A DNA stretch of 6,845 nucleotides, taken from UHGV virus genome UHGV-0274194. One strand, written 5' to 3'. This stretch comes from a virus. Both the position numbers and the translations under genes were made by a program. Numbering within the stretch: position 1 is the first letter of the stretch; every line of letters begins with the position of its first letter. The notes below the pieces were generated by a model, which saw only the letters and a program-made list of their open reading frames with translations, made no database searches and was not told the DNA's origin. Of this stretch, positions 1 to 6,845 are shown one piece after another.

Positions 1-30
1 GCGTAATACGGGCGGTAATGGCTTTTTCAT
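1..30 (-). CDS. 5' end of a minus-strand gene (first 10 codons, [10 protein letters not shown]) continuing beyond the window start; product unknown, possibly the primase-side early operon
   Basis: ATG at 30..28 is preceded by GGGGAGGG about 7 nt upstream on the minus strand. Its start overlaps the stop of the 75-aa ORF (ATGA at 27-30). Too little sequence to identify the product. Confidence 0.45.
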   Translation of the reverse strand, partial: MKKPLPPVLR

Positions 31-254
31 ACGTTACCCTCCCCGGTCAGCCACTGCTGATTGCAGCGTTCGACCACGCCGTCGAGCTGGGCGGTCATGA
101 GGTAAATCACGGAGGTGAGCTGTGACTGCTGCACCGGGTCACGACGAACGGTGGCGCAGTCCTGCACCTGCATCAGCTCATTGACGAGCTGGCCGACATT
201 GCGCATATGCTCCAGACATTCGAGGTCACGGGCGGTAATGGTGGTGTGTCTCAT
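27..254 (-). CDS. Hypothetical small protein (75 aa), P4-like early-region ORF
   Basis: ORF with a GGAGG Shine-Dalgarno 7 nt upstream of ATG 254..252. ATGA overlaps with both neighbours (251-254 and 27-30) indicate translational coupling. Composition is protein-like, but I do not recognise the family. Confidence 0.6.
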
Positions 255-445
255 GCGCGCACCTCCGCAACCGGCAGACGGCCAGCAAACGAGAGGACGT
301 AATCGCGAACGAGGGAAAGGCGTGCGGCGTGCTCATCACCGGCAACGGTGCGGAGCATACAAATACGAGGGGTACGGTCTGCGCGACGAACAGCAGCAAA
401 CACAAAGACAAATTGCGGGTGTGACGGGGTGAGGGTCGTAGCCAT
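251..445 (-). CDS. Hypothetical small protein (64 aa, [16 protein letters not shown]...), start chosen at the internal ATG with an SD
   Basis: ATG 445..443 is preceded by GGAGG with 8-nt spacing. Its stop overlaps the next gene's start (ATGA at 251-254). The longer 183-aa frame upstream (to 802) has no SD and an odd P/R/G/F-rich composition. Confidence 0.5.
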
Positions 446-798
446 AGTGGCAACCTCCATTGAGTAGCGGTTATTGCCACCACCGGAGTTCCTACGCTCA
501 TGGGTGGTGACCCGAACGGGGGTAGGAATACCGGCCTCAATGAATACCGGCCAGCCCGAAGGCTGCCCCGCCCGGATCACCATTATCTGACAGGGGCTAA
601 GGTGTAAACACCACAGCCCGAAAAATGGGTGTGCCTGAGCAACGACGTAAAAAAAGACGCATGGCGCGTCCGGTGTCGCCATTGAGTAACTCGGGTTCCT
701 ACGCCCGGCTGCCGATTTTGCGACAGCGGGAAAACTATACCTGGAAACGGCGAAAAGAAGCAAGCCAGAAAAAGGGGCTGTTTGCTGAACGGTCATCA

Positions 799-1065
799 TC
801 ATGCGTCATAGCCCCGGTTACGTTCGGCAATGCGATCCGCCATCCATGCAGTGATTTCAGACTGCGCCCACGCCACATTTTTTCCGCCGAGGGAGATTTG
901 TTTCGGGAAGGCTTCCCGGCTGATGAGGTCGTAAATGGTCGAGCGGGACAGGCCGCACAGATGCATCACTTCGGGCAGACGGATAAAGCGCTCGTGAACG
1001 GTATCAGAAACCGGCATCAGAGGCGCGGCAGGGGCAGAAGACGGGGAAGAAAAAGCAGTGTGCAT
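799..1065 (-). CDS. alpA: AlpA-family phage transcriptional regulator (HTH, Vis/excisionase-like)
   Basis: The 88-aa ORF core ([48 protein letters not shown]) matches the AlpA/MerR-like prophage regulator pattern from memory. ATG 1065 has a GAGGT SD; an alternative start at ATG 1017 would give 72 aa. Confidence 0.8.
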
Positions 1066-3573: not shown

Positions 3574-4212
3574 GTGTTGAATCCTGATGATTTGGATGAG
3601 GGTGTTTATCCAGATTGCTACTGGAGTTATATAGGGCAAAAGGATTATTTGAAGCCTAACACATACTTACAAGATGCAATTGATGATTTGAATTCAGGAA
3701 GTGAACGCCGAAATATGAATAATGCAGTGCGAAATGCAAAATCGGCATTACATATGAGAGTGGATATTCTTTGTCGAGCTTTTTGTGGCCGCGAATATTT
3801 CCAAAGGAATCTAAGGAACTTTCCAAAAAAGATGGATTTCCTAGAGGGAATTGGAATAGTTAGACCTAGAATAATTGATAAAATAAATAAAATAAGAAAT
3901 GAAATTGAGCACGAGTATCGAGATGCAACTCTTGAGGAAGCAGAGGATTTCATAGATATAGTTTTATTGTTTATGGAAGCAACTAGATATTTAAATTCAA
4001 GGTTTCCATGTGAAGTTGACTTCCATGGATTGGCAGTTTCTGATGAGGTTTATTTAAGGAGAGTAGTATGCAATTGGGAAGGTGGAGAATTACTTTTTTA
4101 CTATTCAAAGCAAGAGTCACGCCGGCTTGATAACGTGCAAACCTACTCAATAAAAGTGGGTGATTATAGATACGCTCGGTGGGTAAAATTCATTCTAGAT
4201 CATTGCGATTGA
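3574..4212 (+). CDS. Cargo protein, 212 aa, putative HEPN-domain RNase (HepT-like RNxxxHxY motif); function unverified
   Basis: GTG start with a strong SD (AGGAGGG, 6-nt spacing). Motif I-R108-N-E-I-E-H113-E-Y115 equals Rx4HxY in a predicted helical context. About 30% GC, far below the flanking core. A perfect TATAAT at 3442-3447 upstream has no good -35. Confidence 0.6.
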   Translation: MLNPDDLDEGVYPDCYWSYIGQKDYLKPNTYLQDAIDDLNSGSERRNMNNAVRNAKSALHMRVDILCRAFCGREYFQRNLRNFPKKMDFLEGIGIVRPRIIDKINKIRNEIEHEYRDATLEEAEDFIDIVLLFMEATRYLNSRFPCEVDFHGLAVSDEVYLRRVVCNWEGGELLFYYSKQESRRLDNVQTYSIKVGDYRYARWVKFILDHCD

Positions 4213-4284: not shown

Positions 4285-5310
4285 TCAATTTGCCAATGCA
4301 GCAACTAATCTTGCTAATTCATTGAAATTACTACTGAATTCTTTTCTGTTTTCTTTCATCGTATCCAGTATTACTCCATTTTGCTCTATTTGTGCATCTG
4401 AGAGGGCGAATACCGGCGTGCTATGTTTTTGAGATTGAGCAATTAGTGAGTTAAAGTCAGAAATATTCGCCAAATTAAAGGGCTCTTTTGAGGGACAGGC
4501 ATTTTCAAAATCAGTAACCGAAATTGACATATTGATAGGATTTAAAGCTGGTATTAATGTATTAGTGACCTCATCTTTGATAATATCAATCCATCTTTGA
4601 AATGATTTTACTGGTAAATTATTTCTTGGACGATACTTCTGAGATATAAATCCGATGAATTTCGGCGGATCAATAGGGAATGGATATAATATTCCACTAT
4701 CTCTAAAGTTATTTATCTCGCTGTTCCATCTAGGAAGAACTTTTGCGAGTGACTTTATTGCCTGAGCACAGAAAAAATCTGGTGATGTAGGAACTATAAA
4801 ATAGTCACTGCACATTAAGAGACATTCATTTAATGCACCAACGCTGGGGCTCATGTCAATAAGGACATAATCAAATTCATGTTTGCGCGCAGTCTCACGC
4901 AAAAAAGCTCCGATGCTGCCGGGGATATTTCTAATTGCGGGAATAGCAGCGCTGGTTGTCAGCGCAACTCCAATCTGTGTTTCAATTTCTGATAAATAGA
5001 TGCTACCACACAATAAACTTAAATTTGGATTTGTTGTGACTAATGGGTCGGATGGTATAACTTTTCCTAAAGAACCATCTACAACAGGTTTGATGCAACT
5101 ATAAATATCACAGTTTGGATTGTTTTTATAGATTTCATCAAAGTCATCAGTGGTCGAATAGCCCAAAGCTAAGGCTGTCAAATTACATTGTGGATCAGCA
5201 TCAACTATTAAAACTTTATAGCCAAGATTAGCTAGCATCCACCCCATGTTAAAAGTCGTGGTTGTCTTACTAACACCACCTTTATGATTAAATAAAGATA
5301 TTATTTTCAT
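4285..5310 (-). CDS. ParA/MinD-like P-loop ATPase (deviant Walker A), 341 aa, with a long C-terminal extension
   Basis: N-terminus FNHKGGVSKTT is a deviant Walker A (KGGxxK[ST]); A' motif VLIVDADPQ; Walker B FDYVLIDMSP. AAGGA SD 7 nt upstream of the ATG. About 36% GC. Confidence 0.8.
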   Translation of the reverse strand: MKIISLFNHKGGVSKTTTTFNMGWMLANLGYKVLIVDADPQCNLTALALGYSTTDDFDEIYKNNPNCDIYSCIKPVVDGSLGKVIPSDPLVTTNPNLSLLCGSIYLSEIETQIGVALTTSAAIPAIRNIPGSIGAFLRETARKHEFDYVLIDMSPSVGALNECLLMCSDYFIVPTSPDFFCAQAIKSLAKVLPRWNSEINNFRDSGILYPFPIDPPKFIGFISQKYRPRNNLPVKSFQRWIDIIKDEVTNTLIPALNPINMSISVTDFENACPSKEPFNLANISDFNSLIAQSQKHSTPVFALSDAQIEQNGVILDTMKENRKEFSSNFNELARLVAALAN

Positions 5311-6660: not shown

Positions 6661-6728
6661 TGGCGGAAGATCACAGGAGTCGAACCTGCCCGGGACCGCT
6701 GGCGGCCCCAACTGGATTTGAAGTCCAG
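6661..6728 (-). tRNA. selC: Truncated tRNA-Sec (selC): the 3' 68 nt only (anticodon arm with UCA, long variable arm, T arm, 3' acceptor strand with GCCA); the 5' acceptor strand and D arm are missing
   Basis: The reverse complement CTGGACTTCAAATCCAGTTGGGGCCGCCAGCGGTCCCGGGCAGGTTCGACTCCTGTGATCTTCCGCCA matches the 3' portion of E. coli selC as recalled. The TCA anticodon and long extra arm are visible. The match stops abruptly at 6728. Confidence 0.8.
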
Positions 6729-6845
6729 AACGATGGACAAGGCCTGTCATTACTCATCAATCCAGACGGCTCAAAGGGCTGGCGCTTCCGCTTTCGTTTT
6801 GCCGGTAAAGCACGGCTAATGTCATTTGGCAGCTACAACCTTGTG
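6729..6845 (+). repeat. Perfect inverted duplicate of int codons 21-59 (partner arm 6323..6439), fused to the truncated selC and running off the window; possibly the 5'-truncated start of a second, oppositely oriented integrase
   Basis: Manual base-by-base reverse-complement comparison of 6323-6439 with 6729-6845 gives 117/117 identity. It translates on the plus strand as [39 protein letters not shown], with no in-frame start codon upstream. Confidence 0.9.

Follow-up and report, generated by a model that had tools for sequence, protein, structure and literature searches.

Positions 1-1065 of our window (the whole 6,845-nucleotide stretch of viral DNA that we analysed) carry a row of small minus-strand genes downstream of an alpA homologue, and within this row lie 357 nt (446-802) that can be read either as an open reading frame or as an RNA gene. 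A sequence-only reading of the region had proposed that the genes form a chain linked by ATGA stop/start overlaps, that 446-802 might be an untranslated RNA like the P4 CI immunity RNA instead of an ORF, or might hold a small gene in another frame, and that two small ORFs further downstream sit at the positions of epsilon- and Icd-like genes. The questions that the locus raises are whether RNA, protein or both are encoded between the alpA homologue and the small ORFs, and what the small ORFs themselves are. Our reading, which we hold with high confidence, is that positions 1-1065 belong to a P4-like satellite, of which they comprise the immunity region and the beginning of the "left" (replication) operon, and that they most likely work as the corresponding region does in phage P4.

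Identity and setting of the element

From its sequence we identified the stretch as a P4-like satellite prophage of E. coli, integrated, as judged from the adjoining gene, at tRNA-Sec. The tRNA-Sec gene (6665-6757) lies directly beside the satellite, which encodes an integrase, a two-gene cargo, and homologues of Psu, Ogr/Delta and Sid. Positions 260-1500 of the window had 75% DNA identity to phage P4 with the same gene order, and positions 1-1500 were 99.9% identical to an E. coli locus (L002) in which the gene chain can be followed beyond the edge of the window, where it goes on to a 106-aa DUF5375 protein and then a primase-helicase, the homologues of cnr and alpha. Roughly one in four complete E. 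coli genomes (1369 of 5426) carried related sequence.

Several features outside the immunity region were seen along the way. The cargo between psu and int (3574-4212 on the plus strand and 4285-5310 on the minus strand) encodes one ParA/MinD-type ATPase (AAA_31, 110 bits) and a second protein of 212 aa that had only a sub-threshold HEPN_RiboL-PSP match; neither protein gave a convincing match in PADLOC, and the L002 satellite has a different cargo at this site, a Sll1717-family P-loop ATPase. The psu-int interval is a known defence hotspot of P4-like satellites, and the cargo pair may be an uncharacterised defence system. Between vis and sid, repeated GTGAACAGT / TGTTCAC units occupy 1320-1445, where P4 has its ori type 1 and type 2 repeats, and a spurious let-7 Rfam match falls on these units. 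Two plus-strand ORFs (625-1170 and 115-432) had no match in a Pfam search, and we rejected them as genes, taking them to be antisense artefacts of GC-rich genes.

A coupled gene chain from vis to cnr

All three ATGA overlaps, which read TCAT on the plus strand, were confirmed from the sequence and the ORF list. They lie where vis/alpA stops and the next ATG begins (799-802), where a 183-codon frame gives way to the 75-aa ORF (251-254), and where the 75-aa ORF meets the start of a gene leaving the window (27-30), giving the minus-strand order vis/alpA, eta with nested kil, the 75-aa gene (orf75), and cnr (Table 1). The first of these genes, upstream of the immunity region, matched Pfam Phage_AlpA (PF05930; 72.3 bits against a cut-off of 21) and was 70% identical to P4 ORF88/Vis at equal length, the homologue that the P4 record names "excisionase and transcriptional regulator." The 64-aa ORF that ends the 183-codon frame scored 78.5 bits against a cut-off of 25 with the NCBIfam model phage_ICD_like (NF033153) and was 87% identical to the P4 Kil region; its ATG at position 445 has a GGAGG (454-458) 8 nt upstream, and the earlier view of this ORF as Icd-like with its own Shine-Dalgarno sequence was upheld. 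Only the first 10 codons of cnr are in the window, and these match the DUF5375/Cnr protein of L002, which scored 216 bits with Pfam PF17345 (cut-off 30) and was 92% identical to P4 ORF106/cnr.

Table 1. Features of positions 1-1065 and their coordinates in the window.
Feature	Coordinates	Strand	Description
vis/alpA	799..1065	-	88-aa excisionase and transcriptional regulator, heading the late (PLL-type) transcript
eta-like ORF, 183 codons	251..802	-	ATG 800-802 overlaps the vis stop; ends as Kil
Putative constitutive early promoter (PLE equivalent) within eta	734..763	-	Homology with P4 and inference
Leader RNA, seqA/IsrK-like	650..740	-	Rfam isrK, c4-a1b1; holds the upstream CI targets
Variable spacer, terminator to CI	588..649	-	Most divergent segment; in-frame length differences relative to P4
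CI / C4-type antisense immunity RNA	500..587	-	Rfam C4 (RF01695)
seqC, downstream CI target	454..495	-	Complementarity search
kil	251..445	-	64-aa Icd-like cell-division inhibitor; in-frame C-terminus of eta, own Shine-Dalgarno sequence
orf75	27..254	-	75-aa conserved protein; ATGA-coupled to kil upstream and cnr downstream
cnr start (DUF5375, copy-number regulator homologue)	1..30, ATG 28-30	-	Gene continues off the window

The junctions recur well beyond this element. Among 78 other loci from different genera, fetched via the Vis protein, an ATGA spans the vis stop in 77, and the kil/orf75 and orf75/cnr overlaps are present in 45 of 65 and 42 of 64 loci, respectively, in which both genes were found. 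Because they recur at the same junctions in related loci of different genera, the ATGA overlaps exceed chance, and the coupled minus-strand chain downstream of alpA stands as first described. Its links do need one revision: the ATGA junctions are real, but the "802-446 frame" and the 64-aa ORF, counted as separate units in the sequence-only reading, are one uninterrupted 183-codon ORF. We also noted that the loci L034, L055-L058, L064, and L067-L082 (mostly Pantoea, Erwinia, Mixta, and Serratia) have an extra ORF of 70-88 aa (MIxLTxGG...LS..DA..LALAI) between vis and the eta-like ORF. The start of this ORF is the ATGA that overlaps the end of vis, and in most of these loci the eta-like ATG lies ~10-15 nt after its stop, and therefore the coupling chain is kept with one more link.

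An antisense RNA and its two targets between vis and kil

Searches with Rfam models showed that RNA genes do occupy this interval. The C4 model matched over its full length (1-87) at 500-587(-) with 81.3 bits (gathering score 45, E = 2.4e-15), and isrK (RF01394) matched at 650-727(-) with 70.9 bits (gathering score 50). A third model, c4-a1b1 (RF03163), reached 45.7 bits at 688-740(-), 1 bit under its gathering score of 46.7; P4 itself, at 44.1 bits, also falls below this score. All three models match phage P4 at syntenic positions, and with C4 and isrK above their gathering scores the proposal that 446-802 holds a P4 CI-like immunity RNA proved correct. The families involved have been connected before: IsrK/C4 were equated with seqA/CI of P4 (PMC3632133), and P4 seqA was called a structural homologue of IsrK (PMC4825925). 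In the output of genome annotation pipelines, all 183 codons of the frame appear as an "Icd-like protein," and the CI and seqA RNA genes are left unannotated.

When CI was aligned across 15 diverged elements, the Rfam structure of 27 pairs, with a long closing stem around two hairpins, was paired in 99.8% of the cells of the alignment, against 30-51% in slid controls, and seven pairs had changes on both sides. A model built from this 15-sequence alignment recovered a single CI copy, on the same strand as vis, from each of the 80 sources (the window, P4, and the fetched loci) in which downstream sequence is present. An 86-row CI alignment (A5) was left out of the pair counts, as it includes six weak antisense matches.

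Inside eta, a block resembling PLE and conserved with P4, consisting of TTGCTT (763-758), an 18-nt spacer, and TATAGT (739-734), is by analogy with P4 a putative constitutive promoter; the predicted transcription start lies near 727, where the isrK model begins, and the c4-a1b1 model begins at 740. A consensus promoter scan of 1-1550 called neither the PLE-like nor the PLL-like promoter; the PLE-like block has a weak -35 hexamer and a spacer of 18 nt. A terminator scan found a terminator-like hairpin (655-671) followed by a U7 run (648-654) at the end of the IsrK-like leader. The spacer that follows (588-649) has the highest column entropy of the vis-to-kil interval among same-length loci, and its length differs from that in P4 by a net 45 nt, a multiple of 3.

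Two short unpaired boxes in CI have complements on both sides of it. Box a' (UUCAUUGAG, 536-544) is in the loop of hairpin 2, and box b' is UUCCUAC (522-528). In seqA the complementarity search identified box b as GUAGGAA (696-702) and box a as CUCAAUGG (679-686), and in seqC it identified box b as GUAGGAA (489-495) and box a as CUCAAUGGA (456-464), the latter overlapping the kil Shine-Dalgarno GGAGG. Pairing extends over 8-9 nt for box a' and 7 nt for box b', with both 679-702 and 456-495. Across the 78 loci, which come from many Enterobacterales genera, we counted 31 CI box combinations, and seqA and seqC co-vary with them: in nearly every locus the matching complements are present at fixed distances. 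The seqC boxes precede the kil ATG by 18-20 and 50 nt in almost every one of the 78 loci, and the seqA boxes are typically ~240 and ~255 nt from it, further in the longer length classes.

The boxes of P4 (CCUGUGAA and UUCUCAC) likewise have matching targets at the same sites. Compared with these, the CI boxes here are UCAUUGAG and UUCCUAC, and both targets have changed to match. Since both boxes and targets differ from those of P4, no shared immunity with P4 is expected, and on this sequence comparison we predict that the satellite is heteroimmune to P4. Across L003-L082, box a comes in some ten types and box b in six, with seqA and seqC nearly always matching, and it looks as if boxes a and b have been freely reassorted between elements.

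An open frame that is not constrained as protein

The RNA genes do not take the place of the frame, which runs without interruption through the promoter, seqA, terminator, CI RNA, and seqC, and then into Kil. The ATG at 800-802 is the first of three consecutive ATGs (794-802), and no good Shine-Dalgarno sequence precedes it. The homologous P4 frame has 199 codons and starts with MMMPALQ at the vis stop. The P/R/G/F-rich, "odd" composition remarked on earlier is present in that these residues make up 30% of the first 119, but it is only mildly odd, the most frequent residues being A, V, P, and S.

In the 357 nt that precede the kil ATG, we counted 11 stops in the kil frame across 78 distinct sequences, most of them the ORF's own upstream boundary; the remaining two minus-strand frames contained 272 and 411. 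At an average of 3-5 stops per sequence, these other frames do not support the small gene in another frame of 446-802 that had been suggested, and we dropped this candidate. The eta frame was open in 75 of the 78 distinct relatives, and the frame is preserved in all six length classes of the vis-to-kil interval (353, 356, 359, 362, 392, and 401 nt). The earlier interpretation was largely correct, but it set an RNA "instead" of an ORF, which is a false choice: there are RNA genes in 446-802, and the frame, which corresponds to P4 eta, is also kept open in nearly all relatives. The three exceptions, L021, L042, and L067, are broken by a frameshift or by stops ~240 nt upstream of kil and have CI and both targets intact. 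Either decay of these elements or an ability to do without full-length eta may account for them, and an element can therefore persist in a genome without the open frame.

Codon-position variability gave a different picture of the same frame. In 22 same-length loci, the entropy at codon position 3 relative to positions 1 and 2 was 5.0 for vis and 3.0 for kil, and 0.8-1.2 for the eta-specific part. A frame that is protected from stops and whose amino acids are not conserved as such is what one would predict where it is ribosome passage, and not the peptide, that matters, and most likely eta is kept open for this passage and not for its protein. [quoted passage not shown]

The same codon statistics could be explained if 446-802 were purely non-coding, consisting of promoter, leader, and CI RNA, with an open frame that is a never-translated relic of a stop-free ancestor. 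Such a region would have no third-position excess, as we see in the eta-specific part (ratio 0.8-1.2), its ATG at 802 would need no good Shine-Dalgarno sequence, and its strongly conserved columns would be RNA stems, as they are. We nevertheless consider this explanation very improbable. The contrast of 11 stops with 272 and 411 holds over 78 distinct and diverged sequences, and the frame is maintained at six different lengths, among them the net difference of 45 nt from P4, which falls in a spacer that cannot be aligned. Moreover, the ATG lies over the vis stop throughout the Enterobacteriaceae group, the Pantoea/Erwinia-type elements start a frame of similar length just after their inserted coupled ORF, and P4 eta has been reported to be translated and to control termination (PMC10111431).

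The Phage_ASH match of the eta frame

In-frame protein homologues over 446-802, which the sequence-only reading had regarded as evidence against an RNA, do formally exist: Pfam Phage_ASH (PF10554) matched residues 22-131 of the eta frame with 103 bits (E = 1.2e-29), and PHROG 6928, "transcriptional repressor," matched with 265 bits. As a refutation these homologues are misleading, because the Pfam family is itself the translation of an RNA-coding region. Phage_ASH has been treated as a domain of the Bro network (PMC10111431), and we weighed whether the first 119 residues are a functional "Ash"/Bro-network regulator domain to which the RNA matches are secondary. Both the scores of PF10554 and PHROG 6928 and the placement of Phage_ASH in the Bro network are in line with such a domain. 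However, the codon positions of this segment are equally variable, unlike those of the flanking vis and kil in the same loci; its conserved blocks are RNA helices with compensatory changes; and the blocks that do vary are the antisense specificity boxes, which co-vary with both of their targets. In addition, the protein families were built from translations of the same DNA, and a match to them is not independent evidence. A functional Ash domain is in our judgement unlikely, and we continue to read the segment as an RNA region through which a frame is kept open.

This match also bears on how satellites have been catalogued. PF10554 has served as the "epsilon" marker for P4-like satellites (PMC8628076). 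P4 epsilon is matched by PF25738 (Derepression family, 170 bits) and not by PF10554, which matches the eta-specific translation in the window (446-802, minus strand) and in P4 (L001; 2489-3088, minus strand). Since PF10554 matches the translation of the seqA/CI region and not epsilon, the "epsilon" component of the catalogue is the eta/CI immunity locus.

The 75-aa gene upstream of cnr

The product of orf75 matched phrog_10110 over its full length (E = 1.3e-45) and had 310 homologues, all of them unnamed or annotated as hypothetical. Its frame and stop are conserved, with a moderate third-position excess (entropy 1.01 at position 3 versus 0.65 and 0.55). An AF2 model predicted a helical hairpin (pLDDT 76.6), for which a fold search against the PDB returned only generic helical hairpins (best E-value 1.7). 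A 75-aa protein with no assigned function was described from 61% of P4-like elements and as absent from P4 (PMC8628076), and orf75 is a typical member of this phrog_10110 family, with size and position as reported there. It is a core gene of P4-like satellites that P4 lacks, as was already noted in that work (PMC8628076). In P4 a 135-nt gap (1626-1760) lies between orf151 and cnr, where most of its relatives carry the 75-aa gene, which suggests that P4 lost it.

The satellite itself has neither an epsilon homologue nor orf151, and we considered whether orf75 functionally replaces epsilon, the derepressor of the helper prophage, in an element that lacks it. That the gene lies directly after kil, in the place of P4 epsilon, that no epsilon homologue is present elsewhere in the satellite, and that the protein is small and helical would all fit such a replacement. 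On the other hand, BLASTP found no similarity between orf75 and P4 epsilon (E = 18), and a search of Pfam gave no match to any family and hence none to PF25738. Further, orf75 co-occurs with epsilon and orf151 in eight loci, which are ordered kil-epsilon-orf151-orf75-cnr (another locus, L028, has orf151 and no detected epsilon). Lastly, the gene was directly upstream of cnr in most loci examined, and as orf75 always abuts cnr it belongs with the replication genes. We thus consider a replacement of epsilon improbable. Of the two small ORFs once assigned to epsilon- and Icd-like positions, the 64-aa ORF is Icd-like, but the 75-aa ORF is neither epsilon nor its replacement. Most P4-like satellites, this one among them, lack epsilon but keep the 75-aa gene, joined by ATGA overlaps to kil and cnr. 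In a joint reading that appears to us rather doubtful, the 75-aa protein would be an undescribed regulator of the satellite life cycle, perhaps a partner of Cnr or alpha in copy-number control or another means of acting on the helper, and the eta-specific 119 codons would be a "translated RNA gene," kept open only to let ribosomes through.

A P4-type model of the locus

The mechanism of P4 immunity has been summarised previously (PMC10111431 and PMC4825925). The model given here sets the anatomy that we observe (the gene identities, the structure and covariation of CI, the three-way complementarity of the boxes, and an open frame free of protein-level constraint) beside what experiments on P4 would imply for CI processing, the mechanism of termination, promoter activity, and the role of translation. 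In the prophage state, the constitutive promoter inside eta (~734-763) would make a leader RNA, which would be processed to a CI RNA of ~88 nt (500-587). The two boxes of CI would then pair with seqA (679-702) and seqC (456-495) on new transcripts, and the downstream pairing would cover the ribosome-binding site of kil. The leader would then be untranslated and transcription would stop early, leaving kil, orf75, cnr, and the alpha primase off. On activation, the late promoter upstream of vis would fire, and ribosomes would translate vis and restart at the overlapping AUGA. As they move along the eta frame, these ribosomes would pass seqA, CI, and seqC and prevent RNA pairing and termination, and the ATGA couplings would carry expression into kil, orf75, cnr, and alpha.

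What the locus shares with the P4 region (PLL, vis, PLE, seqA, cI, seqC, eta/kil, epsilon, orf151, cnr, and alpha) is in the same order and on the same strand. As in P4, the start of the eta frame, ATGATGATG, overlaps the vis stop, kil is nested within eta in frame, the CI fold is the same, seqA and seqC are at the same relative positions, and the proteins are closely related (the 88-aa Vis 70% identical, Kil 87%, and cnr 92%). Unlike P4, eta has 183 rather than 199 codons, being 16 shorter (15 of them in the eta-specific part), and the satellite is without epsilon and orf151 and has an additional 75-aa gene before cnr, where P4 has the 135-nt gap.

Two other systems share parts of this arrangement. 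The immI operon of P1 and P7 (c4 antisense RNA, a1b1/a2b2, icd, and ant) resembles the present locus in having an Rfam C4 RNA with two loop boxes, an upstream target, and a target over the ribosome-binding site of an Icd-like gene. It differs in that its downstream gene is the antirepressor, whereas here these are satellite replication genes, and in that the RNA here lies inside a frame coupled to the AlpA/Vis gene. The IsrK RNA of Salmonella Gifsy-1 (RF01394) is similar in that 650-727 matches the full length of the isrK model, with the terminal hairpin and U-run covered; unlike IsrK, which belongs to a lambdoid prophage and controls orf45-anrP, the element here is the upstream CI target in a P4-type satellite.

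Taken as a whole, the immunity and early-gene region described here is an ordinary member of the long-studied and already known P4 system. As it is a textbook P4 immunity system, its value as a discovery is small and its use lies mainly in annotation. If the eta-specific part is translated only for the passage of ribosomes, Phage_ASH would no longer count as a genuine protein family; under either reading of that segment it is a mislabelled "epsilon" marker in satellite catalogues. For the family as a whole, mutual immunity between satellites could be predicted simply from the two-box code of CI and its targets.
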